DNA of 64,000 nucleotides, taken from positions 256,193-320,192 of the forward strand of contig CP011210.1 of NCBI GenBank assembly GCA_001029675.1, read 5' to 3'. This document shows, piece by piece, positions 24,512 to 53,574 of the stretch. The position numbers and the translations under genes are program-made. This stretch comes from Candidatus Beckwithbacteria bacterium GW2011_GWC1_49_16 (GTDB taxonomy: Bacteria; Patescibacteriota; Microgenomatia; UBA1400; CG1-02-47-37). Below the pieces are notes generated by a model, which had not been told where the DNA came from, did not search any database, and saw only the letters and a list, made by a program, of their open reading frames with translations. Every line of letters begins with the position of its first letter. Within the stretch, counting starts at the first letter, position 1.

Positions 24512-24781
24512 ATGTTAAAGACTTATCTTTACGTGCCAGACGAATTAAATCGTGAAGTCGAAGCTTTGGCTACGGCCGGTAAGACCAGCAAGGCGGCGGT
24601 GATCAGAAGTGCGCTTGATGCAGGAGTGAAAATGCTCAAGAGAAAAAAGACTGGTTCTGTGGAGGTTTTAAACCGAATAGCCGAGATTGGCAGAAAATAT
24701 AATCTTAAAGGGCCAAAGGATGCTTCTGCTAAGATGAATGAGTACCTCTGGGATAAAGATTGGAACAAAAAGGATGAATAA
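24512..24781 (+). CDS. ribbon-helix-helix (CopG/VapB-like) antitoxin
   Basis: 89 aa; RHH-like N-terminus; overlaps the downstream PIN gene by ATGAATAA. Confidence 0.55.
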   Translation: MLKTYLYVPDELNREVEALATAGKTSKAAVIRSALDAGVKMLKRKKTGSVEVLNRIAEIGRKYNLKGPKDASAKMNEYLWDKDWNKKDE

Positions 24782-25196
24782 ACAAACTTTGGTGGTGGGG
24801 GACGCAGATTCGATCGTGGCGCGAGCTAATCCCAACGACCTGAAGCACCAGGAAGCTAAAAAGATTACCGATAGACTTAGTGATTTGGAAGCCCAGCTTA
24901 TTTATCCTGTTACCGCTGTGGTTGAGGCGGTAACGTTTATTCAGCGAGCTTTAAATAGTGGGGCAACCGCTTATGGGACAGCGGTGGAGTTTATCGAGTC
25001 GGGGCAAGTGGCAGAGGTAGATGAAGAGATTTATTCCAGGGCCGTTAACGATTTTTTTGACGCCAGTGTCAGCAAACAGGATACTCTATTTGATTGTATC
25101 GTGGCTGCGGTGGCCAAGAAATACGGAGCGGAGGCGATTTTCAGTTTTGATAAGTTTTACCAAAAACACGGGTTTAAGTTGGCGTCAGAGCTGTAA
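24774..25196 (+). CDS. PIN-domain toxin (VapC-like)
   Basis: MNKQTLVVGDADSIV...FDCIVAAVAKKYGAEAIFSFDKFY, a PIN acidic quartet pattern; start overlaps the upstream stop. Confidence 0.65.
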   Translation: MNKQTLVVGDADSIVARANPNDLKHQEAKKITDRLSDLEAQLIYPVTAVVEAVTFIQRALNSGATAYGTAVEFIESGQVAEVDEEIYSRAVNDFFDASVSKQDTLFDCIVAAVAKKYGAEAIFSFDKFYQKHGFKLASEL

Positions 25197-27212: not shown

Positions 27213-28628
27213 TTGATGGCAAAAAAGCGAGGACGCTTAGTTGTGCGGTATGGGCCGATGTGGTCGGATAAAACCAGTTGGTTAATAAAGCAGTTTGGTA
27301 AAGTGGCTGACACATTGGCTTTTAAGCCCGATATTGATACCAGGTATACTAGAAAGCCGGTTTTAAGGACTCACGATGGAAAGAGCGTGCCGGCAGTAAT
27401 GGTGCCAATTGATCAACCAGAAAAGATTTTCGAGGCAGTAAAAAGAAAACGGGGGGTAATAAAACGAGTGCTGATTGATGAAACTAACTTTTTTTCTGGT
27501 GGTTTGGTGAAAGTAGTTAGAAATTTGATTGGAATGGGGATTGATGTTTATACTGCTGGGTTAATCTTGGATACCGACCTGCAAGACTTTGGTCCAACCA
27601 GGAAGTTAACTAGGATGGCCGATGAGGTGGTAGAAAGTTTTGCTAGGTGTGATTTTATGTTTTTAACTGGTAGGTGTGGGAGGAGAGCCAGGTTTAACTA
27701 TTTTAAAGCAAAAAAGGATACGCAAATTGTGGTGGGGGCCGATGAGTTGTACGGCGTAGCCTGTGAAGATCATTATCAGGCCCTTCACTTTAAGACTGGT
27801 AGTCAAAAACAGTGGTGGTCAAGAATTAAGAAGCTGGTTGGGGCTAATCACCAAAAGAGCGACTGGAGTTGGTTTAGGCGATTAAAGTTACCGTCTAAGA
27901 AAAGGAGGCCGTTAAAGTTTTCCTTTGACCGGTGGCCAAGAATCGAAGTAGTAGCAGACAGTATGCGGGTGGGTAAAACTACGGCGGCTAGGGCTTTGGG
28001 TATAGAGCTTAAAAAACTGGGTCTGCCAGTAAGAGTCAGTTTAGAGGATTGGTCGAATAATCCCTATTTGGAAAAGAGTTACCTTGATTCGTCGGAATGG
28101 ATACTTTTGTCACAAGAGTGGTTTGCTAAGAAAAAATTTGAGCAAATTAAACGTGGAGAGAAAGAAGCAATATTTATTCAGGATGTTAGTCCGGAGATGG
28201 ATTTTGCTTATGCTTTGACCAATGTGCTCATGGGTAGGATGTCAAAGGAGCATTTTAAGGATTACTTTAAGTTCTATTCTAGCCACAAATGGGAAAATCT
28301 GCCGGCTCCAGACGTATTGGTTTATTTGACGATTAGCGATGAAGCCTTAGTGAAAAGGGCGTTGGAGAGTGTTAGGGATCTGGAGAAGATTGATCCATCA
28401 TATTTTTTGTTGATGCGAGCGGTTAATCGAACCTGGCTGGCTGATTCAGACCATATGACGGTGGTTAATATTGATACTGACGACCTTGATTTTTCTAAAG
28501 AAGGCCCGGCTAGAAAAGCCTTAGCCGGGCAGGTTTTAAAAAAACTACACGATTTAGGCTGGAAGTGGGATAATAGTTTTACTGCTGAGATGAAAAGGCA
28601 GGATTGGTTTGCTATGGTAGCAATATGA
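27213..28628 (+). CDS. tdk: fusion protein: thymidine kinase (N-terminal, about 195 aa) plus deoxynucleoside kinase (C-terminal)
   Basis: TK: GPMWSDKTSWLI P-loop, LIDETNFF, CxxC zinc motif. dNK: VVADSMRVGKTTAARAL P-loop and ISDEALVKRALESVRDLEKIDPSYF lid region. Confidence 0.7.
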   Translation: MMAKKRGRLVVRYGPMWSDKTSWLIKQFGKVADTLAFKPDIDTRYTRKPVLRTHDGKSVPAVMVPIDQPEKIFEAVKRKRGVIKRVLIDETNFFSGGLVKVVRNLIGMGIDVYTAGLILDTDLQDFGPTRKLTRMADEVVESFARCDFMFLTGRCGRRARFNYFKAKKDTQIVVGADELYGVACEDHYQALHFKTGSQKQWWSRIKKLVGANHQKSDWSWFRRLKLPSKKRRPLKFSFDRWPRIEVVADSMRVGKTTAARALGIELKKLGLPVRVSLEDWSNNPYLEKSYLDSSEWILLSQEWFAKKKFEQIKRGEKEAIFIQDVSPEMDFAYALTNVLMGRMSKEHFKDYFKFYSSHKWENLPAPDVLVYLTISDEALVKRALESVRDLEKIDPSYFLLMRAVNRTWLADSDHMTVVNIDTDDLDFSKEGPARKALAGQVLKKLHDLGWKWDNSFTAEMKRQDWFAMVAI

Positions 28629-29383
28629 AAAAACAACCGTGGTGGCAAGATCTTAAGAAAATTGGTAGCTGGCCGCTTGGTTGGTTAGCCGAAGTTGAAT
28701 TTCCTGACCAGAGGAAAGCTCAAAAGGAAAAGGGTAGAAAGTGGCCGAGAATTGAAGTGGGAGGCGACACCATGCGGGTGGGTAAAACCACGGCGGCAGT
28801 GGTGTTAAATGAACAGTTTAAGAGGAGGGGTCTGTCGGTTAATTTATCTGACGAAGATTGGCAGTCAAATCCATATTTGTTTGAAAGTTATCGGGATTCT
28901 TCCAAGACGATTTTTGAGTCGCAAAAATGGTTTGCTCAACGTAAGTATGAACAGTTAGGCAGGGAAAATAACTCGATTATGATTCAGTGCGTTCATCCGG
29001 AAATGGATTTTTGCTACGCTTTGACCAACGCGATTATGGGCAAGATGAATCAACGCCATTTTAAAGCCTATATGAGAGTTTATCTGTCTTTGGGGTGGGA
29101 TAAAATTGCGGCGCCTGATTTACTTGTTTATGTCACTGCCAGCGATGATATTTTAGTCAATCGAGCCCAACGGTCAGCGAGAGATTTTGAAGTAATTGAT
29201 CCGGAATATCTTTTGGTGATGAAGTTTTTAAACCAAACTTGGCTCAGTGGAGCTAAAAAGAGAATGGAGGTGTTAGTGATAGATACTGACAATTTTAACT
29301 TTGCCCTCAACCAGAAATCCAGAAAGGAGTTGTCTGACCAAGTGATTAAAAAACTAAAGCAGAGAGGTTGGAGATTAAAGTGA
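28625..29383 (+). CDS. deoxynucleoside kinase family protein (paralog of the C-terminal domain of the upstream fusion)
   Basis: GGDTMRVGKTTAAVVL P-loop, ASDDILVNRAQRSARDFEVIDPEYL. ATGA overlap with the upstream stop. Confidence 0.7.
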   Translation: MKKQPWWQDLKKIGSWPLGWLAEVEFPDQRKAQKEKGRKWPRIEVGGDTMRVGKTTAAVVLNEQFKRRGLSVNLSDEDWQSNPYLFESYRDSSKTIFESQKWFAQRKYEQLGRENNSIMIQCVHPEMDFCYALTNAIMGKMNQRHFKAYMRVYLSLGWDKIAAPDLLVYVTASDDILVNRAQRSARDFEVIDPEYLLVMKFLNQTWLSGAKKRMEVLVIDTDNFNFALNQKSRKELSDQVIKKLKQRGWRLK

Positions 29384-30033
29384 GAAAACAGCAGGGTAAG
29401 TTGATAGTTTTTGAGGGAATCGACGGTTCGGGTAAAGCCACGCAGGCAAAGTTATTGTTTAATTATTTAAAGAAGAGAAAAGTGGCTGTGGAGGAGATTG
29501 CTTTTCCAAGATATGACACCATTCACGGCCAGGTAGTTAAGCGGATGCTTCAGGGTGAGTTTGGTAAAAGCGTTAATCCCTATCTGGCCTGTTTGCCGTT
29601 TGCTTTGGACAGGTTGATGGCTAGAGATATGATCAAAAATTGGCTGGCTCAGGACAAACTAGTGATTGCCGACCGGTATGTGACGGCTAGTATGGTGCAT
29701 TTATCAGCTTTTTTACCGCAGGATAAGCAGCAGCGGAAGTTTATGGACTGGGTGGCGATACTTGAGTATCAGATTCATGGTTTACCGCTGGAGAACTTAG
29801 TGGTTTTACTGAAAGTGCCGGCGAGATTAAGCCAGAAGTTAATGGTAAAAAAAGACATGGTGGAGAAAGATTTAATTTATCAAAAACGGGTTTATAACCA
29901 GTATCAACAGATGGCTAAAAAATTTGGGCATTGGGTAGTGGTCGAGTGCGTTGATAAAAAAGAGGAGATTTTGCCCAAAAGTGAGGTCCACCAGAGGGTG
30001 CTTGAGGCATTAAAGAGAAGAAAGATAATTTAG
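29380..30033 (+). CDS. tmk: thymidylate kinase (GTG start overlapping the upstream stop)
   Basis: LIVFEGIDGSGKATQ P-loop; DRY-type motif ADRYVTAS. Confidence 0.8.
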   Translation: MRKQQGKLIVFEGIDGSGKATQAKLLFNYLKKRKVAVEEIAFPRYDTIHGQVVKRMLQGEFGKSVNPYLACLPFALDRLMARDMIKNWLAQDKLVIADRYVTASMVHLSAFLPQDKQQRKFMDWVAILEYQIHGLPLENLVVLLKVPARLSQKLMVKKDMVEKDLIYQKRVYNQYQQMAKKFGHWVVVECVDKKEEILPKSEVHQRVLEALKRRKII

Positions 30034-30396: not shown

Positions 30397-30399
30397 GCG

Positions 30400-30422
30400 A
30401 CCACCCGAGAGGGTGGTTTTTT
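30400..30422 (+). terminator. rho-independent terminator
   Basis: accaccc-gaga-gggtggt followed by ttttt. Confidence 0.7.
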
Positions 30423-30461: not shown

Positions 30462-32078
30462 ATGAAGAAGGACTACTACACCAAAGTTTCAAGCTACGAA
30501 GCCAGAATGGGTGAAGTGAAGCGGGTGGTGCTTTTGTATTCTGGGGGTTTGGACACCAGCGTGTTGATGAAGTGGATTCAAGATAAATATAGGGCAGAAG
30601 TGATTGCCCTAACCATAGATTTGGGACAGCAAGGCGACGATTTAGACAAGATCAGAAATAAGGCTTTGAAGCTGGGGGCGAAAAAAGCTTATGTGATTGA
30701 TGCCAAAGACGAGTTTGCTGATGAATATTTGTCGCACATGATTAAGGCCAATGGTTCATATCAGGGGGACTACCATATATCGACAGTGAGTAGGTATTTG
30801 ATGGCCAAACTGGCGATTGTGGTAGCTACCAAAGAGAAGGCTGACGCAGTGGCTCACGGTTGTACCGGAAAAGGTAATGATCAGGTGAGGATTGATTCGA
30901 GCATTTTAACTTTAAACTCCAACGTTAAAATTATTGCGCCAATTAGAGAGTGGGACATGACACGGGAAGCGGAGATCGAATACGCTCAAAAACACCAGAT
31001 TCCTGTGCCGGTAAAGAAAGATTTTCCTTACAGCGTGGATGATAATATGTGGGGAATGACTTGGGAGGGTGGGGAGATTGAAGACCCGGGTAAAATTCCT
31101 CAAATCGACCGGTTTTTGACTGCGTGTAGAACCTTGGACAAGACACCGGATAAACCGCAGATGATTACTTTGGAGTTTAAAAAAGGCGTCCCTTATAAAC
31201 TCAATGGTAAGAGTTATAAGTTAGCAGAGATGATTATGAGGCTTAACAAAATAGCCGGCAGACACGGAGTCGGGGTGGTTCATCATGTGGAAGACAGGCT
31301 AGTGGGCCTAAAAACGAGAGGGGTGTATGAGCATCCCGGTGGTCATACTATTATCCAGGCTCATAAAAATCTAGAGAAGTATGTTTGCACCAGAAGAGAA
31401 AACGAGTTTAAGGAGATTATGGATGTGAGATTTGGCTATCTTTGCTACGGGGCTTTGTGGTTTGACCCAATTATGGATGATATTAGAACTTTGAACGACA
31501 AAATTAACGAAAAGGTAAACGGTAAGGTAACGCTTAGGCTCCATAAAGGCCACGCGACTGTGGTGGCGATGAGGTCGCCTCATGCGCTTCACCACGTGTC
31601 GTTTGAGGACAAGGCGACACCATTTAATGTGATGACCAGTGCGCCTTTTATTGAGGTTTACTCGATGCAGATGAGGTTGTCGCAACAGCGGGGTGAGAAA
31701 AGAGTTTTGTTGTCGATTGGGAGGCAGGGAAATAAAGAAAAATTGTTACCGACTGCCAGGAAGCTTTCTAAGTTGGGTTACGTGATTTTTGCCACTGAAA
31801 AAACTCACAGGTTCTTAACTGAAAATGCGGTGTCCAATTACTTGGTGTATAAAATCAGCGAGAAGAAAGCCCCCAATTTGGGGGTGATGCTTAACGAAAA
31901 GGGGTTTGATCTGATTGTAAACATTCCCACGTCAAGCGTTGACAAGAAAGAAATGACCGACGGCAAGCTGATTCGGCAAAAGGCGGTGGATGATAAAGTG
32001 ACTCTGTTGACGACCGTGGACACAGCCAAGCGCCAGATTGAAAAGCTATATGAAGCTAAATTTGGTAAGCTGGAGTGA
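30462..32078 (+). CDS. argG: argininosuccinate synthase fused to a C-terminal MGS-like domain (CarB allosteric-domain type)
   Basis: VVLLYSGGLDTSV PP-loop and HGCTGKGNDQVRID. C-terminal 130 aa (RVLLSIGRQGNKEKLLPTARKLSKLGYVIFATEKTHRFL...DLIVNIPTS) matches an MGS-like fold. Confidence 0.75.
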   Translation: MKKDYYTKVSSYEARMGEVKRVVLLYSGGLDTSVLMKWIQDKYRAEVIALTIDLGQQGDDLDKIRNKALKLGAKKAYVIDAKDEFADEYLSHMIKANGSYQGDYHISTVSRYLMAKLAIVVATKEKADAVAHGCTGKGNDQVRIDSSILTLNSNVKIIAPIREWDMTREAEIEYAQKHQIPVPVKKDFPYSVDDNMWGMTWEGGEIEDPGKIPQIDRFLTACRTLDKTPDKPQMITLEFKKGVPYKLNGKSYKLAEMIMRLNKIAGRHGVGVVHHVEDRLVGLKTRGVYEHPGGHTIIQAHKNLEKYVCTRRENEFKEIMDVRFGYLCYGALWFDPIMDDIRTLNDKINEKVNGKVTLRLHKGHATVVAMRSPHALHHVSFEDKATPFNVMTSAPFIEVYSMQMRLSQQRGEKRVLLSIGRQGNKEKLLPTARKLSKLGYVIFATEKTHRFLTENAVSNYLVYKISEKKAPNLGVMLNEKGFDLIVNIPTSSVDKKEMTDGKLIRQKAVDDKVTLLTTVDTAKRQIEKLYEAKFGKLE

Positions 32079-33055
32079 TGGTTAAAAAAACTGATGGTTG
32101 GGACTTAAAAAGGTTGCTTGTTGAGGAAATTAAAAAGCAGGGCGGCTGGGTTAATACTCATGCTCATTTTGATAGGGCTTATACTATTTCTCCAAAGCTT
32201 CTTAATCAAGCACATGCGCTTATGGAGCGGAAATGGACTTTGGTTGACCCTATGAAACGGGCTTCTAGCGAAGAGGTATATGAGGCGAGAATCGAAAGAG
32301 CTGTGAGGGCGATGATTAGTCAGGGAGTATCTGCTTGTGCGACATTTATTGATGTTGACCCTGTTGCTGGACTTAGAGCAATAAAGGCAGCATTGAAGGT
32401 AAAGAAAAAATACGCCGGGAAAATTACCATGTTGCTTATTAATCAAGTACTTAAGGGTGTAATTGATGAGGACTCGAGACGATGGGCAGAAAAAGCCTTA
32501 GAGTATGTTGATATTATTGGCGGTAATCCTTCTAAAGACCGACCTCAACCCAGAAAACATCTGGATATTGTGTTGGGATGGGCGAAGAAGACGGGCAAGA
32601 TGGTTCATGTACATATAGATCAGGAGAATAATCCGAAAGAACACGACACTGAACTGTTAGCAAGAAAAACAATAGAGCATGGCCTTGAAGGAAAGGTGGT
32701 AGCGGTTCATTCAATTTCAGTCGGGGCTCAACCAAAGAAGAGAAGAAAAGAAATTTACAAGTTGATGAAGGCGGCTGGATTGATGGTTGTCTGTTCGCCT
32801 TCGGCGGCCATTTCCATGAAGCCGTTGTCATACAGAACAGAAATTCACAATAGCATTGCTCCGGTGCCAGAACTTCTAGATGCGGGGATTACTGTAGGGT
32901 TAGGGTGTGATAATATCGGTGATATTTTTCAGCCGCTGGTTGATGGAGATATGTTTACAGAGTTGAGGTTTTTGGCAGAAGCGTGTCGATTTTACGAGCT
33001 TGATCAGCTGGTGAAAATTGCTACTATTAATGGTAAAAAGGTTTTAGGGATTTAA
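32075..33055 (+). CDS. amidohydrolase-superfamily metal-dependent hydrolase (dihydroorotase-like, possibly PyrC)
   Basis: NTHAHFD (HxH), HVHID and a late GCDNIGD Asp. Translationally coupled to argG (GTGATGG overlap) and directly upstream of pyrD. Confidence 0.5.
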   Translation: MMVKKTDGWDLKRLLVEEIKKQGGWVNTHAHFDRAYTISPKLLNQAHALMERKWTLVDPMKRASSEEVYEARIERAVRAMISQGVSACATFIDVDPVAGLRAIKAALKVKKKYAGKITMLLINQVLKGVIDEDSRRWAEKALEYVDIIGGNPSKDRPQPRKHLDIVLGWAKKTGKMVHVHIDQENNPKEHDTELLARKTIEHGLEGKVVAVHSISVGAQPKKRRKEIYKLMKAAGLMVVCSPSAAISMKPLSYRTEIHNSIAPVPELLDAGITVGLGCDNIGDIFQPLVDGDMFTELRFLAEACRFYELDQLVKIATINGKKVLGI

Positions 33056-33056
33056 A

Positions 33057-33977
33057 ATGGCAGATCTAAAAGTAAAGTTTTTAGGATTAACTTTTGCCAA
33101 CCCGCTGGTGATGCCGTCGGGGATTATTCAGGAGATTGGCGACCACGTGCGGGCGGAAAAAGCCGGGGCCGGCGGGGTGACGACGAAATCTTTAACCAAA
33201 GAACCCAGGGAAGGAAATCCCCTGCCGCGGGTGATCAAATATCCCTTTGGGCTGTTGAATTCGGTGGGTTTGAGAAATCCGGGGATCAAAGAAGGGGTTA
33301 AGCAGCTAAAGGAGTTTGTGGCCCAAAGCAAGATTCCGGTGATTGCCAGTGTTTTTTCGGCCAACGTGCCGGATTTTGTCAGTCTGACAGAACAGGTGGT
33401 AACAGCAAAGCCTGATTTTATCGAGCTCAATCTTTCCTGTCCCAACACCACCGACGAGCTGGGCGAGTCGTTGGGCATGGGGGCGGAGTCAACGGAAAAG
33501 TCAGTAGCGGCGGTGAGGCAGGCAGTGGGAAAAAAGATTAAGTTGATCGCCAAGTTGAGTCCGAATGTGGCCAATATCGACCAGGTAGCCAAAGCCGCGT
33601 CTGACGCGGGAGCCGATGCCATTTCCGCCATCAACACCGTCGGCCCGGGGATGGTGATTGATATTGCTACCAAAAAGCCCAGATTGGGCAACAAAAAGGG
33701 GGGAGTGTCCGGGCCGGGAATCAAGCCGGTGGCGGTGCGGTGTGTTTATGATATTTATAAAGCGGTTAAAATTCCGATTATCGGCATGGGCGGGGTGGAG
33801 ACAGTTTTAGACGTAGTGGAGATGATGCTGGCCGGGGCGACGCTGGTGGGGGTGGGGTCGGCTACCTACAGGCACGGTTTTGGGGTGTACCAAAAGATTA
33901 ACCAAGGTTTGGAAAAATACCTGGAAGAGAATAAGATTAAATCATTAGCAGAACTCGTGGGAGGAGCTCATGAATGA
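33057..33977 (+). CDS. pyrD: dihydroorotate dehydrogenase (class 1-like)
   Basis: FANPLVMPSGI, LNLSCPNT, GMGGV TIM-barrel motifs. Confidence 0.8.
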   Translation: MADLKVKFLGLTFANPLVMPSGIIQEIGDHVRAEKAGAGGVTTKSLTKEPREGNPLPRVIKYPFGLLNSVGLRNPGIKEGVKQLKEFVAQSKIPVIASVFSANVPDFVSLTEQVVTAKPDFIELNLSCPNTTDELGESLGMGAESTEKSVAAVRQAVGKKIKLIAKLSPNVANIDQVAKAASDAGADAISAINTVGPGMVIDIATKKPRLGNKKGGVSGPGIKPVAVRCVYDIYKAVKIPIIGMGGVETVLDVVEMMLAGATLVGVGSATYRHGFGVYQKINQGLEKYLEENKIKSLAELVGGAHE

Positions 33978-34617
33978 CGTAGTAGCTATCTTAAAAAGAA
34001 TCGGGGCGGTGATCACCAACGATCACTTTGTTTACACTTCCGGCAAGCACGGCGAGGTGTATATCAATAAAGACGCGCTTTACCCGCATACTAAGGAAAC
34101 CAGTGAAGTCTGCCGGATTATGGCGGAAAAGTATAAAGATGCTGATGTAGAGGCGGTGGCGGCTCCGGCCGTGGGCGGAACGATTTTGTCCCAATGGGTG
34201 GCTTATCACTTGAGCCAGATAAAGGGTAAAGAGATTTTGAGCGCCTATACGGAAAAAGACGCCGGCACGACCGCTTCGGCGGCGGAGTCAAAGCAATTGT
34301 TTCGTCGCGGCTACGACGCCGTGGTCAAAGGCAAAAAAGTTTTGGTGGTGGAGGATTTGACTACCACCGGCGGTTCGGTGAAACAGGTAGTCGATTGCGT
34401 GAGAGATGCCGGCGGCGAGGTGGTCGGCGTCTGCGTCATGGTCAACCGCGACCCGGAAAATGTCAATTCCGAGTCAGTCGGGACGCCGTTTACGGCCGCC
34501 GGGGTGCTTAAAGCCGAAGCCTTTGACGAGAAGGACTGCCCGTTTTGTAAACAGGGCAGACCGATTAATACCAAAATCGGCCATGGAAAGAAATACCTGG
34601 AAGAGAAAGGTAAATGA
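33970..34617 (+). CDS. pyrE: orotate phosphoribosyltransferase
   Basis: PRPP-binding VLVVEDLTTTGGS. Confidence 0.8.
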   Translation: MNDVVAILKRIGAVITNDHFVYTSGKHGEVYINKDALYPHTKETSEVCRIMAEKYKDADVEAVAAPAVGGTILSQWVAYHLSQIKGKEILSAYTEKDAGTTASAAESKQLFRRGYDAVVKGKKVLVVEDLTTTGGSVKQVVDCVRDAGGEVVGVCVMVNRDPENVNSESVGTPFTAAGVLKAEAFDEKDCPFCKQGRPINTKIGHGKKYLEEKGK

Positions 34618-35036
34618 GTTACGTAGTTTTTTCGATTGCTACGGCTTTGTTTTTTTCGCTGACTTTTTTATTAAGAAAGCTGGCGGTTAAAACTCTGCCG
34701 TTTTCTGCGGCTTTACTGATCGAGGTGGTGGTGGAGTTGGTTTTGTTCGCTATTTTGTTTTGGGTTTTAAAGCCGGAAGGCAGGGTGGAATTGGACTGGT
34801 CAAACAAGGGAGTAAGATACGCGGTTTTGGCCGGAGTGATGGTGGCTTTGGGTGTGGCAGCCAATATCTTGGCAGTCCGAAGTGGGTTTTTGTCTAAGGT
34901 GGTAGCGATTACCTCACCGAGCCAGATTATTTTCGGGGTGCTGTTGGGGCTGGTTTTATTAAGCGAAGCATTGAGCCTGAGGCAGATCGTGGGGGTGATA
35001 CTTGGAGTAGTGGGAGTAATTTTAGTAGTTTACTAG
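34614..35036 (+). CDS. small EamA/DMT-family membrane protein (4 TM)
   Basis: 140 aa with four hydrophobic segments; C-terminal SLRQIVGVILGVVGVIL. Confidence 0.45.
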   Translation: MSYVVFSIATALFFSLTFLLRKLAVKTLPFSAALLIEVVVELVLFAILFWVLKPEGRVELDWSNKGVRYAVLAGVMVALGVAANILAVRSGFLSKVVAITSPSQIIFGVLLGLVLLSEALSLRQIVGVILGVVGVILVVY

Positions 35037-35038
35037 CC

Positions 35039-35614
35039 ATGAAATACAAAGTCGGGGTTTTTGGGTCGGCGGTGGATGAGGGGGACGAGGTGATGGCTAA
35101 GGCGCGGCAGGTGGGCGAAGCGCTGGGTAAGTTTAAAGAGAAAATCATCGTGGTGACCGGTGCCTGCAGCGGCGTGCCCTACGAGGCTGCCCGCGAGGCG
35201 GCCAAGGCAGGAGTAACGGTTTGGGGTTATTCGCCCGAGTTTGATGTTTCAGGCCAAAAGCGGTTTACTCCGGAGGATGACTTGTCAATCTATCAAAGAA
35301 TAGTTTTTGTGCCGCGGCAGTTTGGTTTTGAAGACAGGCCGATGGTGAGGAAAAAGTACAGAAACGTGATTTCTACCGCCGACTGTGACGGGGCCATTTT
35401 TATTGCCGGCCGCTGGGGGACGCTTCACGAGTTTAGCTCGTTAGTTGACTATGGCGGAGTCTGCGGAGTTTTGACCGGCACTGGGGGTATCGCCAAGGAA
35501 CTGCCGCAACTAGATGCCAAGGTCAAAAAAGCCGGCTCGGGGAAAGTGATTTTTGATGTAGATCCTGCTAAGCTGGTCAAAGGAGTGATTGATGAGATTT
35601 CAACAAAAGCTTAG
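35039..35614 (+). CDS. LOG/SLOG-family Rossmann-fold nucleotide-binding protein
   Basis: VGVFGSA...VVTGACSGVPYEAAREA...GRWGTLHEF. Confidence 0.45.
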   Translation: MKYKVGVFGSAVDEGDEVMAKARQVGEALGKFKEKIIVVTGACSGVPYEAAREAAKAGVTVWGYSPEFDVSGQKRFTPEDDLSIYQRIVFVPRQFGFEDRPMVRKKYRNVISTADCDGAIFIAGRWGTLHEFSSLVDYGGVCGVLTGTGGIAKELPQLDAKVKKAGSGKVIFDVDPAKLVKGVIDEISTKA

Positions 35615-36365
35615 TGCGATCCAGAAGAAAAATAACTCGCTGGTATGCGTGGGGTTAGACCAGGGCGAATTTGAGTTTGATAAAAAAATTATTGAAAAAA
35701 CCCACGACTTGGTTTGCGCTTACAAACCCAATTTTTCCTTTTACGAGGCCCGCGGCGAAACGGGTTGGCGGGATTTGAAACTGACGGCGGAGTATTTAAG
35801 AAAAAACTACCCGGAAGTGGTGACCATTGCCGACGCCAAACGGGCAGATATAGGCAACTCCAACCAAGGGTATGTCAAAGCCATTTTTGACGAGTTAAAG
35901 TTTGACGCGGTCACGGTGCATCCCTACTTGGGTCGGGAGGCGGTGTTGCCGTTTCTTGAACGGGCGGACAAGGGAATATTTGTTTTGTGCCGGACGTCAA
36001 ACCCCGGAGCGGGCGAGTTTCAGGATTTGAAAGTTGGTTCTGCGGCGGGTTCGGGGCAAAAACCTTTGTGGCAGGCAGTGACGGAAGGGGTGCGTGATGA
36101 CTGGAATGAAAACGGCAACGTGATGCTGGTGGCCGGAGCCACTTACCCGGAAGAACTCAAAAAGATTAGAGAAGTAGTGGGGGAGATGACGCTTTTGGTG
36201 CCTGGAGTCGGGGCCCAAGGCGGCGATGTAGCCAAAACCGTCAAAGCGGGGGTAAACAGCCGAGGCGCGGGGATGATTGTTAATTCCTCGCGGGGGATAA
36301 TTTTTGCCGACGATCCGAGAACAGCGGCGGAAAAATTAAGAGACGAGATAAACTCGTTTAGATGA
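35589..36365 (+). CDS. pyrF: orotidine-5'-phosphate decarboxylase
   Basis: IADAKRADIGNS (DxKxxDI motif), VCVGLD. Confidence 0.8.
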   Translation: MMRFQQKLSAIQKKNNSLVCVGLDQGEFEFDKKIIEKTHDLVCAYKPNFSFYEARGETGWRDLKLTAEYLRKNYPEVVTIADAKRADIGNSNQGYVKAIFDELKFDAVTVHPYLGREAVLPFLERADKGIFVLCRTSNPGAGEFQDLKVGSAAGSGQKPLWQAVTEGVRDDWNENGNVMLVAGATYPEELKKIREVVGEMTLLVPGVGAQGGDVAKTVKAGVNSRGAGMIVNSSRGIIFADDPRTAAEKLRDEINSFR

Positions 36366-37240
36366 AGTTAACTTTTGCCGGACACTCGGTGGAAATAGTT
36401 TCGGCCCGGCCGGGAGAAAAGATCGACGTTGCCAAACTGTTGGCATACCCAGATGAGTTTCACGGTGACACCCGGGTGAATCATTTGGTTAAGTTCGGCG
36501 ATTCGTTTAGCAGTTTAATTGGTCAAAGCAGGGCGGTTTTGCCGAAAGAGGCAGTGGTGGTTTTAGAACATCATTTTGACGAGGCCAAGAAACTGATGGA
36601 TAAAATTAACGCCTTAGCGCAAAGGTTGGTGGCAGAGCCGGAAAAGTACGACGACATCGGTTTTTGCCGACAGTATTTTGAGCTGGCCCGCGCCGGCTAC
36701 AGCTTGCTTGCCAAGCACGAAGCCGAGTTTGGTTTTGATGCTAAGTCTATTCCGGTGAGTCTGGAGCGGGCAGGGCTGGTGACTACCAGGTTGGCCGGGG
36801 GACTCACTCAAGACGCGGTTATTGATAACGAGGTGGCGGTGGTGACCAAAAGGGTTCACCTTAAAGGCGAGCCGGAAACAAATTTGGCGGTGACGGTCAA
36901 ATGGCGGGATAAGCATAAGCTGATTTCAATCAACGGCCGGGAAGTTTTACTGGCTGATTTTGTCAATCCGGCCTCGGGAGCGAGCGGGGCGGCTTTTTTA
37001 CTGGCGGCCAAAGTGGTGAAAGTTTACCCAATTAAAGTACAGCATCGGTCGGTATCTTTAACCCGGCAGGGGGTGAATTTGATCAAACCAGCGCTGAAAG
37101 AGCTGGGAGTGAAAACCAGTTTTTACAGCGTGGGAGAGGCCAGTCAGCTTAACCGCCAGTATTACCTGGTTGGTAATCGAGCCGTGGCTGACGCCGGCCA
37201 GGTTTTGCGGCATTTTCTGCCTAAGTTTTACAAAGATTAA
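36362..37240 (+). CDS. hypothetical protein embedded in the pyr/pur cluster
   Basis: 292-aa ORF with translational coupling on both sides; no motif recognised. Confidence 0.4.
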   Translation: MKLTFAGHSVEIVSARPGEKIDVAKLLAYPDEFHGDTRVNHLVKFGDSFSSLIGQSRAVLPKEAVVVLEHHFDEAKKLMDKINALAQRLVAEPEKYDDIGFCRQYFELARAGYSLLAKHEAEFGFDAKSIPVSLERAGLVTTRLAGGLTQDAVIDNEVAVVTKRVHLKGEPETNLAVTVKWRDKHKLISINGREVLLADFVNPASGASGAAFLLAAKVVKVYPIKVQHRSVSLTRQGVNLIKPALKELGVKTSFYSVGEASQLNRQYYLVGNRAVADAGQVLRHFLPKFYKD

Positions 37241-37260: not shown

Positions 37261-38148
37261 ATGTTGGTGTTTAGCGGGTCGTCAAATAAGCTTTTGGCCC
37301 AAAGAGTCGCCGCCAAACTAAAGACGCGGCTGGGCAAAGTGGAATTGTCGCGGTTTGCCAACGACGAAGCCAGGGTGTGGGTGAAAGAGGCAAGGGTGGG
37401 TAAGAGAGCGATTTTAGTCCAGTCGATGAGCGCACCGACCGATGAGCATTTAATCGAGTTTTGTTTATTGGGAGATGCTTTGGTGAGGCGGGGGGTAAAA
37501 AAAATTATCGCCGTTATCCCCTGGCTGGGGTACACCAAACAGGATAAGGTGTTTCGTCCGGGCGAGCCTTTGTCGGTGGCAGTGATTGCTAAAATCATCG
37601 AGCTTTTACCGCTTCAAAAGGTGATTACTTTTGACCTTCACAAACCGCATACAAGGCGGTTTTTTAAGACTCCGATTGCCAATTTGTCGGCCCGGGAGCT
37701 GCTCGAGGAATATTTTAGAAAACGAGTCAGCAAAAACACCATTGTCGTAGCGCCTGACGTCGGTTCGGTTAAATCCAATACCAGCTTTGCCAAGAAGCTG
37801 AAGCTGCCTTTGGTAAAGATTGATAAAAAGCGGAGTCTGGCCAACGGTAAAGTCAGGGTGGGGGGAGTCAGCGACGAGGTTAAAGGGAAAAGGGTGCTAA
37901 TTAAAGACGACATGATTGCTACCGGCAGTACTTTGATTGAGGCGGTCAAATTCTTGAAAGCCAAAGGGGCAAGTCAGATCGAGGTGGCGGCGACTCATCA
38001 TCTGTATGTGCCGGGGGCGCAGGCAAAACTTGATCGAAGCCCGATTGCCCGCGTGGTGGTGACGGATACGGTCGAGCCTAGAGTAAAGTCAAAGAAATTG
38101 GTCGTTTTGTCCGTGGCGGAGGTGATCGCCCGCGAGATCAGAGTTTAA
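37261..38148 (+). CDS. prs: ribose-phosphate pyrophosphokinase
   Basis: VAPDVGSVK and LIKDDMIATGSTL PRPP-binding loop. Confidence 0.85.
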   Translation: MLVFSGSSNKLLAQRVAAKLKTRLGKVELSRFANDEARVWVKEARVGKRAILVQSMSAPTDEHLIEFCLLGDALVRRGVKKIIAVIPWLGYTKQDKVFRPGEPLSVAVIAKIIELLPLQKVITFDLHKPHTRRFFKTPIANLSARELLEEYFRKRVSKNTIVVAPDVGSVKSNTSFAKKLKLPLVKIDKKRSLANGKVRVGGVSDEVKGKRVLIKDDMIATGSTLIEAVKFLKAKGASQIEVAATHHLYVPGAQAKLDRSPIARVVVTDTVEPRVKSKKLVVLSVAEVIAREIRV

Positions 38149-38191
38149 TTTGGGGCTTGACAGAAATCTAAGTCAAAGCTAAATTCAACTT

Positions 38192-38218
38192 AGGGCTTGA
38201 TTCAGGCCCTATTTTTTT
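38192..38218 (+). terminator. probable intrinsic terminator after prs
   Basis: agggc-ttgattcag-gccct then atttttttg. Confidence 0.4.
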
Positions 38219-44931: not shown

Positions 44932-45174
44932 ATGACGATTCTTTCTACCGTAACCACCAAGGGCCAGGTGACTATTCCCCAAGAGTTTAGACAAATGCTG
45001 AACATTAAACCAGGCCAAAAAGTACAATTTTCCAAAGGCGGGTCAGGAGCAATTAAGCTTAAACCTGTACCTGATTTTGCGGATATGATGGGTTACTTTA
45101 AAACTAAAATTAAATACAATAAAAAGGCTGCTAGAGCAGCTTACGTTAAGGATTTAATTGCTGGTAAAATCTAA
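44932..45174 (+). CDS. AbrB/MazE/SpoVT-family antitoxin
   Basis: TTKGQVTIPQEFRQMLNIKPGQKV swapped-hairpin motif. Confidence 0.6.
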   Translation: MTILSTVTTKGQVTIPQEFRQMLNIKPGQKVQFSKGGSGAIKLKPVPDFADMMGYFKTKIKYNKKAARAAYVKDLIAGKI

Positions 45175-45557
45175 TGGTTATTGATACGGATATTATTATT
45201 CGATTTATAACCCAAGACGATAACCAAAAGGCGAAAAAATTTCAAGTTTGGCTGAAAAAAAACAAAAAAATTCTCCTGTCTGATGTTACGGTTGCCGAAA
45301 CCTATTGGGTGCTTAAGTCTTTTTACGGTTTTTCTCAAAAAAGAATAATTATCAGTCTTGAATCACTGGTGAGCTATAACAATATCGTATGTAATAAAGT
45401 TTTGCTGTTATCAACGATGGCGCAATTAAAAAGATATAAGATTAGTTTTGTTGATGCTTACGCGTCAGCATATAGTTTGCTGGAAAATGATGGGAAAATA
45501 CTTTCTTTTGACAAGGATTTTGACAAAATTAAAGGCATTAAAAGAATTGAACCTTAG
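45174..45557 (+). CDS. PIN-domain toxin (VapC-like)
   Basis: MVIDTDIIIRF...SFDKDFDKI acidic residues; ATG overlaps the upstream stop. Confidence 0.7.
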   Translation: MVIDTDIIIRFITQDDNQKAKKFQVWLKKNKKILLSDVTVAETYWVLKSFYGFSQKRIIISLESLVSYNNIVCNKVLLLSTMAQLKRYKISFVDAYASAYSLLENDGKILSFDKDFDKIKGIKRIEP

Positions 45558-52903: not shown

Positions 52904-53161
52904 ATGAATGTAAATTATTCTATTACTTTACCGGTAAGCGCTAAGGGGCAGGTGACTATCCCTGTTAGCATTAGACGCCTACTTAAGCTTGATAAAACTC
53001 AAAGGGTAACAGCGGAAGTAATTTCTAAAGATAAAGTGATCTTAAAACCGATTAAATTTACCCTTGAAGATGTTTACGGCTCAGTTAAGCCGATTGCCAG
53101 GAATTTTAAAGAAATGAGGCAAATTGTCCGACAGGAGAGAGCGTTGCGGACAAGCGGCTAA
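52904..53161 (+). CDS. AbrB/MazE-family antitoxin (paralog of 44932)
   Basis: SAKGQVTIPVSIRRLLKLDKTQRV. Confidence 0.6.
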   Translation: MNVNYSITLPVSAKGQVTIPVSIRRLLKLDKTQRVTAEVISKDKVILKPIKFTLEDVYGSVKPIARNFKEMRQIVRQERALRTSG

Positions 53162-53574
53162 TGAAACCCACTTTTGTTGACACCAACATTTTTATTCGCT
53201 TTATTACTAAAGATGACTCTAAAAAAGCGGCTAAGTGCTGGTTATTGTTTAAAAAGGCCAGAGAGAAAAAAGTCATTTTAACTACCTCCGAGGCTATTCT
53301 GGCAGAAACGGTTTATATTTTGACATCTAAGGCGCTGTATGGGCTTTCGAGAGAAGAGGTTAGGGATAAACTCCAGCCTTTAATCGGGCTTAAAGGGCTA
53401 AAGCTTAACTTTAGAGTTGAAATATTAATGGCTTTGGATATTTTTGTAGAATACAAAATTGATTTTGAAGACGCTTTAACCGTGGCGCGAATGAAGAGCG
53501 AGCAGATAAAAAACATTTATTCTTATGATCAAGATTTTGACAAGGTGGATTGGATCGGCAGACAAGAACCGTAA
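53161..53574 (+). CDS. PIN-domain toxin (paralog of 45174)
   Basis: FVDTNIFIRFITKDD...YSYDQDFDKV. Confidence 0.7.
   Translation: MKPTFVDTNIFIRFITKDDSKKAAKCWLLFKKAREKKVILTTSEAILAETVYILTSKALYGLSREEVRDKLQPLIGLKGLKLNFRVEILMALDIFVEYKIDFEDALTVARMKSEQIKNIYSYDQDFDKVDWIGRQEP

Follow-up and report, generated by a model that had tools for sequence, protein, structure and literature searches.

An argininosuccinate synthase fused to a CarB-type MGS domain and an AtzC-like amidohydrolase as a candidate front end of a pyrimidine operon in Patescibacteria

We analyzed a stretch of 64,000 nucleotides from Candidatus Beckwithbacteria bacterium GW2011_GWC1_49_16 (contig CP011210.1, positions 256,193 to 320,192 of the forward strand), which we call the window, and focused on two of its genes: an argininosuccinate synthase (ArgG) with a CarB-type MGS-like domain at its C-terminus (ArgG-MGS), and the gene right behind it, encoding a 326-aa amidohydrolase of the PRK06886 family for which we use the shorthand AMIDO. 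The window has the gene content of small-genome Patescibacteria, or Candidate Phyla Radiation (CPR); its genes lie nearly all on the plus strand, the GC skew is strongly positive, and the nearest relatives of the focal genes come from Gottesmanbacteria/Microgenomates metagenome-assembled genomes (MAGs). The following features surround the two genes, in window coordinates:

30398..30422, plus strand: terminator-like hairpin with a U-run (RNA fold of -15.6 kcal/mol, z = -4.3, 0 of 200 shuffles as stable)
30462..31691, plus strand: ArgG core, aa 1-410 of the fusion (PF00764, PF20979, PRK00509)
31692..32078, plus strand: C-terminal MGS-like domain of the CarB type, aa ~411-538 of the fusion (PF02142)
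32075..33055, plus strand: AMIDO, NF005365/PRK06886 family, TIM barrel only, 326 aa (NF005365, 439 bits)
33057..33977, plus strand: pyrD, dihydroorotate dehydrogenase, class 1-like (PF01180, 8.6e-70; PRK07259, 321 bits against a cutoff of 269)
33970..34617, plus strand: pyrE, orotate phosphoribosyltransferase, Thermus type (PF00156; TIGR01367 pyrE_Therm, 133 bits, narrowly missing the cutoff of 150)
34614..35036, plus strand: small hydrophobic/membrane open reading frame (ORF) of 140 aa within the operon (ORF list)
35039..35614, plus strand: SLOG/LOG-like protein (PF18306, 8.7e-19)
35589..36365, plus strand: pyrF, orotidine monophosphate decarboxylase subfamily 2 (PF00215, 9.7e-33; TIGR02127, 218 bits against a cutoff of 110.6)
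36362..37240, plus strand: ORF of 292 aa within the operon (ORF list)
37261..38148, plus strand: prs, ribose-phosphate pyrophosphokinase, supplying phosphoribosyl pyrophosphate for PyrE (PF13793, PF14572, PF00156)
38191..38211, plus strand: intrinsic-terminator-like hairpin with a 9-bp stem and a T-run (terminator scan)

From argG-MGS to prs, this arrangement looks like one operon with argG-MGS at its head. The stop codon of argG-MGS (TGA, 32076-32078) overlaps the start of AMIDO by 4 or 1 nt, depending on whether the latter begins at the GTG at 32075 or the ATG at 32078; AMIDO ends at 33055, nearly abutting pyrD at 33057, and pyrD and pyrE overlap by 8 nt. Between pyrE and pyrF lie the small membrane ORF and then the SLOG/LOG-like gene. 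Because the upstream hairpin, which was not flagged in the terminator consensus scan, closes a group of salvage genes (TK-dNK, dNK, tmk), we take argG-MGS to be the first operon gene, and the hairpin at 38191..38211 is the probable operon end. Orthologs of pyrE hold the equivalent position in related loci. The 140-aa ORF has no homolog among 81 related loci, and the 292-aa ORF has neither a homolog among those loci nor a Pfam or NCBIfam match. No match to PyrK was found in the window, leaving pyrD without an adjacent pyrK.

Searching the window by tblastn with Escherichia coli PyrB, PyrI, ArgI, CarA, CarB and PyrC gave no match, and neither did CPR PyrB, type-I PyrC, ArgH, DDAH-like and AspA-like proteins. 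Across the compared loci, the lack of matches to E. coli PyrC was an artefact, because this type II query misses type-I enzymes. Compared with a canonical pyrimidine operon, pyrD, pyrE, pyrF and prs are present, and carA, carB, pyrB and pyrC were not found within the window. An earlier note on this DNA, made by a model from the letters and a list of ORFs, had pointed to the ArgG fusion, to the overlap of its stop with the amidohydrolase start and to the lack of aspartate transcarbamoylase (ATCase) and carbamoyl-phosphate synthetase (CPSase) in the window, and on all three counts our analysis agrees with it. The motifs that it quoted (SGGLDTS, HGCTGKGNDQVRID and RVLLSIGRQGNKEKLL...DLIVNIPTS) are likewise present in the translation. 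Its gene order needs a small correction: pyrD and pyrE do follow AMIDO directly, with prs close by, but pyrF is preceded by two further ORFs.

The fusion (30462-32078, plus strand) is 538 aa long and contains both ArgG domains (Arginosuc_synth, PF00764, aa 21-181, 6.9e-63; Arginosuc_syn_C, PF20979, aa 190-405, 2e-59) followed by the MGS-like domain. Its scores for the argG equivalog models are far above the cutoffs (PRK00509, 473 bits against 334; TIGR00032, 428 bits against 268), and the solved ArgGs 6xnq (5e-97) and 1j1z (7e-91) align with the ArgG core from end to end at ~50% identity. In addition to the PP-loop SGGLDTS at aa 27-33 and the substrate motif GKGNDQVR, the motifs Y-G-Y...T...R, HG(A/C)TGKGNDQVR, PYS-D-N...EGG-EDP and VE-R-VG-K-RG-YE of the two structures are kept, which we take to form the citrulline- and aspartate-binding sites. 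Judged by these similarities, the ArgG part most likely makes argininosuccinate from citrulline, aspartate and ATP. In other words, it resembles the classical enzyme (EC 6.3.4.5; Thermus thermophilus 1J1Z) over its full length, sharing its PP-loop and substrate motifs, but it differs in carrying an extra CarB-type MGS domain, in heading a pyrimidine rather than an arg operon, in having no argH, argF or argR partner in the window, and in filling the syntenic slot that carAB-pyrB-pyrC occupies in related genomes.

The domain search of the tail placed MGS (PF02142) at aa 428-517 (7.4e-15; 55.3 bits against a gathering score of 24.1), and the tail aligns to positions 933-1049 of the 1058 positions of CarB (2.3e-14, NCBIfam) and to the MGS domain of human CPS1 (2yvq, 8e-7). 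It thereby corresponds to the last ~120 residues of CarB, that is, to the allosteric domain (~937-1073 in E. coli; 2YVQ in human CPS1), but is joined to ArgG and not to an ATP-grasp synthetase. The equivalents of K954, T974, T977 and K993 of E. coli CarB, which we take from the E. coli CPS-IMP/UMP structures to line the phosphate pocket for UMP/IMP, show no exchange in any of the 26 ArgG tails aligned or in 3 CPR CarBs, whereas several base- and ribose-contact positions differ between the ArgG tails and both E. coli and CPR CarB. Given this invariant pocket, the MGS domain probably still binds an effector resembling a nucleotide monophosphate, and the tail is probably a nucleotide-monophosphate sensor.

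The fusion is not restricted to this genome. All of its best 120 homologs combine ArgG with MGS, and their annotation reads simply argininosuccinate synthase. When the tail by itself was searched against 1.84 billion cluster representatives, 705 matches resulted, with the architectures ArgG-MGS, CarB, type-I PyrC-MGS, MGS-PyrD and MGS-AMIDO, as well as asparaginyl-tRNA synthetase (AsnRS)-like-MGS, AsnRS-like-MGS-PyrD and AsnRS-like-MGS-PyrD-phosphoribosyltransferase (PRTase). The MGS domain is fused to the N-terminus of AMIDO in L014 and in the metagenomic locus L004 (compared loci are labeled L and a number). Among the recovered architectures, this MGS subtype is fused solely to pyrimidine-pathway enzymes, and ArgG, bearing the same domain, would therefore rank among the enzymes controlled together with pyrimidine synthesis. 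The AsnRS-like variant was observed in L052 (8331-9818, minus strand) as a catalytic core of the AsnRS type that has no anticodon domain, comparable to an AsnA-like ligase, fused to the same MGS; in other organisms, PyrD and a PRTase are joined to it as well (807 and 1134 aa; proteins P0397, P0401 and P0383). In L052, a pyrD...pyrF operon that diverges from AMIDO begins with this gene, and from its sequence and placement it looks like a second ATP-dependent front-end enzyme of pyrimidine clusters.

AMIDO itself is a clear, full-length member of NF005365 (PRK06886), scoring 439.3 bits against a cutoff of 340, with aa 11-326 aligned to positions 9-324 of the 327 of the model. This is a "hypothetical protein" equivalog that carries no assigned function, whose members are annotated as amidohydrolase or cytosine deaminase; of the candidates scored, 1850 proteins from two or more phyla matched it at E <= 1e-5. 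In an alignment of 42 sequences, H29, H31, H180, H212 and D279 are invariant, K127 is nearly so, and the columns of the active site match the HxH, H, H, D pattern seen in the mononuclear enzymes CodA and AtzC. A profile built from the 42 sequences retrieved AtzC (1e-33) and then CodA (2e-30) as the closest solved relatives in the PDB. The AlphaFold2 model (pLDDT 94.7) matched, in Foldseek, cytosine and 5-methylcytosine deaminases and AtzC best (query-normalized TM-scores of 0.80-0.87), with triazine hydrolase, isocytosine deaminase and guanine deaminase as the next neighbors. No dihydroorotase (DHOase) family was found among the NCBIfam or Pfam matches, and no DHOase in the PDB profile search (E <= 1e-3) or among the top 50 Foldseek matches. 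Sequence profiles and the predicted fold together place AMIDO outside the DHOase branch and within the deaminase/dealkylaminase branch of AtzC, CodA and the isocytosine and guanine deaminases; the label "dihydroorotase-like" that the earlier note had attached to it is therefore abandoned here.

Within this branch, CodA (E. coli 1K6W) and 5-methylcytosine deaminase (4R88) are the top structural matches (TM 0.84-0.87) and share the mononuclear-metal TIM barrel, but AMIDO lacks their beta-sandwich domain and scores far under the cutoffs of the cytosine-deaminase models of NCBIfam (best PRK07572, 90 bits against 438). Matching by reading the CodA motif, we found that the position of Glu217 of CodA, the catalytic Glu three residues past the third metal His, is occupied by Gln183 (HVHIDQ), which is invariant in the 42 sequences; this makes a plain cytosine deaminase unlikely. 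The best solved relative is AtzC (N-isopropylammelide isopropylaminohydrolase; 2QT3, 4CQB; TM about 0.81), whose active-site positions (HxH, Gln, His, His and Asp-Asn) align with those of AMIDO, are conserved in the comparison of the profile with 2qt3 and do not vary within the AMIDO family. By hydrolysis, AtzC removes an alkylamine from a ring carbon that lies between two nitrogens, which is the chemistry that we propose below for the release of ornithine. However, AMIDO is only ~24% identical to AtzC, consists of the barrel without the beta-sandwich (326 aa against about 400 aa), has Arg in place of the Lys that follows the HxH motif, and occurs in the context of arginine and pyrimidine metabolism rather than triazine degradation.

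To place AMIDO in its genomic context, we compared its neighborhoods in loci from 80 genomes, counting 53 non-Bacteroidota loci separately. The family occurs in Patescibacteria and in Bacteroidota (Blattabacterium, Geopemphigus endosymbiont, Flavobacteriales, Weeksellaceae, Chitinophagales and Saprospiraceae). ArgG-MGS is present in 28 of the 53 loci, in 19 of these 28 directly 5' of AMIDO on the same strand; several of the others have a DDAH/arginine-dihydrolase-like gene between the two. In a further 17 of the 53, AMIDO is next to a true ArgH (TIGR00838, 310 bits against a cutoff of 279.5), often with pyrD/E/F in the same cluster, and the Bacteroidota contribute 10 loci in which ArgH and AMIDO form a pair of their own, away from any arg operon. 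The commonest gene downstream of AMIDO in CPR is pyrD. AMIDO is linked to either ArgG-MGS or ArgH across phyla, and no metabolite other than argininosuccinate is shared by these two enzymes. Eleven loci of the Weeksellaceae/Moheibacter type (L022, L033, L040-L042, L046, L057, L063, L065, L069 and L080) form a separate arrangement, in which a divergent DDAH/arginine-deiminase-like gene and then CtlX (NF046062, 454 bits), a putative citrullinase (PMC9007349), come after AMIDO. This conserved triplet has arginine, citrulline and ornithine as its theme.

A conserved frame in Gottesmanbacteria-like genomes shows what the pair may stand in for. There, an atp operon and a CBS-domain gene are followed by a variable front end and then by pyrD-pyrF-pyrE(-upp-pyrG-rplS), with flanking proteins that are 60-89% identical between genomes. 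In L092 and L093 and, with variations, in L091, this slot is filled by carA-carB-pyrB-pyrC with inserts; ArgG-MGS followed by AMIDO fills it in L001/L005 (OY969569.1, a 995-kb chromosome), L006 and L008, and the window has this second form. Such a swap within a fixed frame is what one would expect if one functional unit had taken the place of another. In L007, both are present in the order ArgG-MGS, AMIDO, carA, carB, pyrB, pyrC, pyrD, pyrF, and the pyrC is of type I with all catalytic residues present; in L038, AMIDO and a type-I pyrC likewise share an operon, with ArgH between pyrC and pyrD-pyrK. Because the two coexist, AMIDO is not simply a PyrC substitute, and by the same token a pyrB elsewhere in a genome would not alone make the module an ordinary one. 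Among the best 120 homologs of a CPR PyrB, which reach down to ~62-64% identity, roughly where an ortholog from a module genome would fall, none lies on a large module-carrying contig, a weak but suggestive hint that pyrB is absent from module genomes.

The gene content of Blattabacterium provides an independent line of comparison. An AMIDO ortholog is found in 3 of 3 B. cuenoti genomes examined and in strain BPLAN, within a 65-member cluster at 90% identity that is annotated as amidohydrolase or cytosine deaminase. An earlier metabolic model of Blattabacterium needed dihydroorotate import (PMC3287516), and a later one closed the gap only by giving the carB gene, BLBBGE_317, both EC 2.1.3.2 and EC 3.5.2.3 (PMC3819652 supplements). 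Since both activities are attached to carB, neither pyrB nor pyrC is encoded in these models; there is no dedicated gene for either, and pyrD is present (PMC3819652, PMC3287516). We had also considered that BLBBGE_317 might be the AMIDO ortholog, assigned as DHOase, and rejected this, as the locus is carB with ATCase and DHOase attached in CAD style. Strain BCpu has lost many amino-acid pathways; its argH was lost cleanly and long ago, yet its carAB, argA-F and argG are intact; CPUbr and MADAR are likewise without ArgH (PMC9603385). If AMIDO converted argininosuccinate to dihydroorotate and ornithine, both puzzles, the required import of dihydroorotate and the dead-end argininosuccinate, would vanish.

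Taken together, we propose that ArgG-MGS and AMIDO open de novo pyrimidine synthesis as a two-enzyme front end that replaces CPSase, ATCase and DHOase, a reading suggested by sequence and gene context to which we assign a probability of roughly 0.55. In the first step, by strong homology, ArgG would join citrulline and aspartate with ATP to argininosuccinate, thereby making the future N1-C2 bond of the ring, with citrulline as the carbamoyl donor. AMIDO would then close a six-membered ring by bringing the free guanidino nitrogen to the beta-carboxylate. The resulting six-membered cyclic anhydride of argininosuccinate, a compound that argininosuccinate is known to form spontaneously, would amount to dihydroorotate with an ornithinyl-imino group at C2. 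From there, AMIDO would displace the ornithine amine from C2 by metal-activated water, as AtzC does with isopropylamine, so that the net reaction would turn argininosuccinate into dihydroorotate and ornithine. This balances without net water, as C10H18N4O6 equals C5H6N2O4 plus C5H12N2O2, and by our own estimate the hydrolysis of a guanidine to a urea should favor the overall step. PyrD, PyrE, PyrF and Prs, encoded downstream, would complete the synthesis of UMP, and the CarB-derived MGS domain would bring the new committed step under control by nucleotides of the UMP/IMP type. In loci with ArgH, the reversible lyase might form argininosuccinate from arginine and fumarate (in L054, an AspA/FumC-like gene is next to ArgH), and where a DDAH-like gene lies between ArgG-MGS and AMIDO, its product could turn arginine into the citrulline that is needed.

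Compared with the canonical CarAB, PyrB and PyrC (CAD in animals), the module would have the same product, dihydroorotate, and it occupies the same slot upstream of pyrD with the same type of allosteric domain on its first enzyme, but its enzymes are non-homologous. The proposed route would also differ in passing through neither free carbamoyl phosphate nor carbamoyl-aspartate, in using citrulline/ornithine to carry the carbamoyl group, and in converting ATP to AMP and PPi. The wider claim, that this is an unrecognized de novo pathway with ornithine as the catalytic carrier of the carbamoyl group and AMIDO as an "argininosuccinate cyclohydrolase", widespread in Patescibacteria and present in Bacteroidota, including Blattabacterium, strikes us as an even call. 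The earlier note had raised a non-canonical route to (dihydro)orotate, and this idea gains comparative support from the in-situ replacement and the gaps in Blattabacterium, though not through a dihydroorotase-like hydrolase; the pyrimidine-nucleotide control of ArgG that it suggested is indirectly favored by the restriction of the MGS fusions to pyrimidine enzymes and by the predicted, conserved pocket.

Several points weigh against the two-enzyme front end. AMIDO would have to perform both ring closure and C-N hydrolysis, or else rely on a slow spontaneous cyclization. The pairing of AMIDO with the AsnRS-like-MGS protein in L052 means that the substrate may not be argininosuccinate everywhere, and the presence of the module together with the canonical genes in L007 means that it could be accessory. 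A complete canonical pathway may accompany AMIDO in free-living Bacteroidota, and the route would then be redundant there. The absence of carAB, pyrB and pyrC refers to the 64-kb window only, and the window holds no arginine deiminase, DDAH-like enzyme or ornithine transcarbamoylase as a source of citrulline. In the full-text literature, no description was found of the ArgG-MGS fusion, of the PRK06886 family or of the proposed reaction. A GapMind preprint of 2026 was considered as a prior description and set aside, as it deals with a different amidohydrolase.

We weighed these data against five other explanations. That AMIDO is the missing dihydroorotase was once our lead reading, which we downgraded when the L007 operon proved to hold a canonical type-I pyrC. 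On this account, AMIDO would be a non-canonical dihydroorotase and ArgG-MGS an ordinary arginine enzyme whose tail balances flux between arginine and pyrimidine synthesis (both pathways draw on carbamoyl phosphate and aspartate), with pyrB and carAB elsewhere. Its appeal lies in the many loci in which AMIDO is directly 5' of pyrD, in the carA-carB-pyrB operons headed by AMIDO in L007, L038, L084 and L045, in the lack of a recognizable pyrC in Blattabacterium, and in the common superfamily of AMIDO and dihydroorotases. We nevertheless consider it unlikely, given the canonical type-I pyrC beside AMIDO in the L007 and L038 operons and the lack of any DHOase model, solved structure or fold match. 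Furthermore, Blattabacterium also lacks pyrB, so that a DHOase alone would not close its gap, and this reading offers no account of the pairing of ArgH with AMIDO in Bacteroidota, of the loss of carAB and pyrB in situ or of the MGS fusions. Alternatively, the module might feed pyrimidines through other chemistry: AMIDO could hydrolyze argininosuccinate to N-carbamoyl-aspartate and ornithine, with a separate cyclase needed, or ArgG could take urea or another ureido donor to form guanidinosuccinate, which AMIDO would cyclize and deaminate to dihydroorotate. The genomic evidence is equal for this idea and for the one we prefer, a true deaminase would fit the CodA-like fold, and the AsnRS-like-MGS variant gives a hint that one ligase can stand in for another. 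Against this stand an ArgG that is ~50% identical to solved ArgGs, with intact citrulline/aspartate motifs and an equivalog-level score, the need of carbamoyl-aspartate for a DHOase, which Blattabacterium and most module loci lack, and the Gln in place of the catalytic Glu of CodA, which together make such chemistry rather unlikely in our view.

Metabolite repair, in which AMIDO reopens cyclic anhydrides of argininosuccinate for ArgH and its pyr neighborhood in CPR is incidental, would account for the tight association of AMIDO with ArgG or ArgH in two phyla and for its retention in arginine-producing endosymbionts, and its superfamily is capable of cyclic-amidase activity. We regard it as very unlikely, since it explains neither the replacement of carAB-pyrB-pyrC at a fixed syntenic site nor the overlap or abutment with pyrD, the MGS-AMIDO fusions and the pyrimidine-specific MGS tag; many CPR loci have ArgG-MGS and AMIDO without an ArgH in reach, and ArgG is retained in argH-less Blattabacterium for no reason that repair would supply. 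There might also be no functional link at all, with an ordinary ArgG bearing an uninformative tail and an unrelated hydrolase, such as a nucleobase deaminase of salvage, co-transcribed by chance. Public annotation ("argininosuccinate synthase" and "amidohydrolase" or "cytosine deaminase") and the richness of the window in nucleotide-salvage genes would fit this, but dozens of divergent lineages have the same pairing, with genes that overlap or are tightly packed, the catalytic Glu of CodA is lost in AMIDO, the ligand-pocket residues of the tail are conserved in 26 of 26 cases and MGS-AMIDO fusions exist, and we hold chance to be a highly improbable cause. Finally, ArgG, together with ArgH, could yield fumarate as the electron acceptor for a class-1A PyrD, with AMIDO unrelated; FumC/AspA-like lyases adjoin pyrD or pyrC in L091, L093, L006 and L054, and ArgH directly precedes pyrD in L038. 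Yet ArgH is not found near ArgG-MGS in the window, in L001 or in most other such loci, so that no fumarate would be released. The ATP-consuming route would be wasteful compared with aspartase, the pyrD of L038 is paired with pyrK and hence of the NAD-linked type that does not need fumarate, and AMIDO would be left unexplained. We rejected this supply of fumarate by ArgG-MGS, because most such loci are without ArgH, and find it barely credible. None of these five explanations covers the syntenic replacement, the linkage to ArgG/ArgH in two phyla, the presence of PyrC alongside AMIDO, the MGS fusions and the gene content of Blattabacterium together. A role of AMIDO as N-acyl-citrulline deacylase, as in the arginine pathway of Bacteroidota, was rejected as well: the ArgH-AMIDO pair lies apart from arg operons, and CPR are without the upstream pathway.

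The locus presents a pyrimidine operon with a candidate non-homologous front end, which would constitute a new pathway if the chemistry is confirmed. The six-step de novo pathway is regarded as nearly universal and invariant, and its first three activities are drug targets and subjects of textbook allosteric control. If ArgG-MGS and AMIDO act as proposed, CPSase (where citrulline or arginine is obtained), ATCase and DHOase may be dispensable, and the first enzyme of the new pathway may have captured the UMP-sensing domain of CarB; the regulatory domain would then have moved with control of the pathway and not with its catalytic partner. This would mean a new enzyme reaction and a function for a large "hypothetical" family. 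Patescibacteria are usually scored as unable to make pyrimidines; their metabolic reconstructions would change, and their nucleotide supply would be tied to host-derived arginine or citrulline. It would also resolve two puzzles of 2011-2012 in Blattabacterium, the assumed dihydroorotate import and the dead-end argininosuccinate.

Further observations concern the surroundings of the operon and the compared loci. Directly 5' of the operon, at 27213-30033 of the window, lies the salvage block, consisting of an unusual fusion of thymidine kinase (TK) and deoxynucleoside kinase (dNK) (471 aa; TK at aa 8-188, dNK at aa 250-443), a second dNK (28604-29383) and a thymidylate kinase (29368-30033). The SLOG/LOG-like gene (PF18306) recurs directly 5' of pyrF in L031, L079 and L091, in clusters of the ArgG-MGS type and canonical clusters alike. 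Fumarate-related genes occur within CPR pyr clusters (L091, 10942-13271; L093, 13090-14418; L006; L054, 12320-13660): lyases of the FumC/AspA type are found beside pyrD or pyrC, and L091 has a FrdA/FrdB-like pair of flavoprotein and iron-sulfur protein between pyrB and pyrC, with no pyrD called in the cluster. Going by these gene families, they suggest a fumarate-linked oxidation of dihydroorotate.

Some of the compared records, from binchicken/SRP co-assemblies, are MAGs labeled as "uncultured Gammaproteobacteria" or "Pseudomonadales" (L006-L008, L011-L013, L023, L037, L038, L044, L050, L054, L055, L061, L075, L076 and L084). They have a Patescibacteria-type gene order and proteins that are 50-70% identical to those of Gottesmanbacteria, and their taxon labels look wrong. 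Within the window, short ORFs at 24512-25196, 45174-45557 and 53161-53574 resemble, by eye, toxins of the PIN/VapC type amid housekeeping genes, and a small ORF at 24512-24781 looks like an antitoxin-like partner of one of them.

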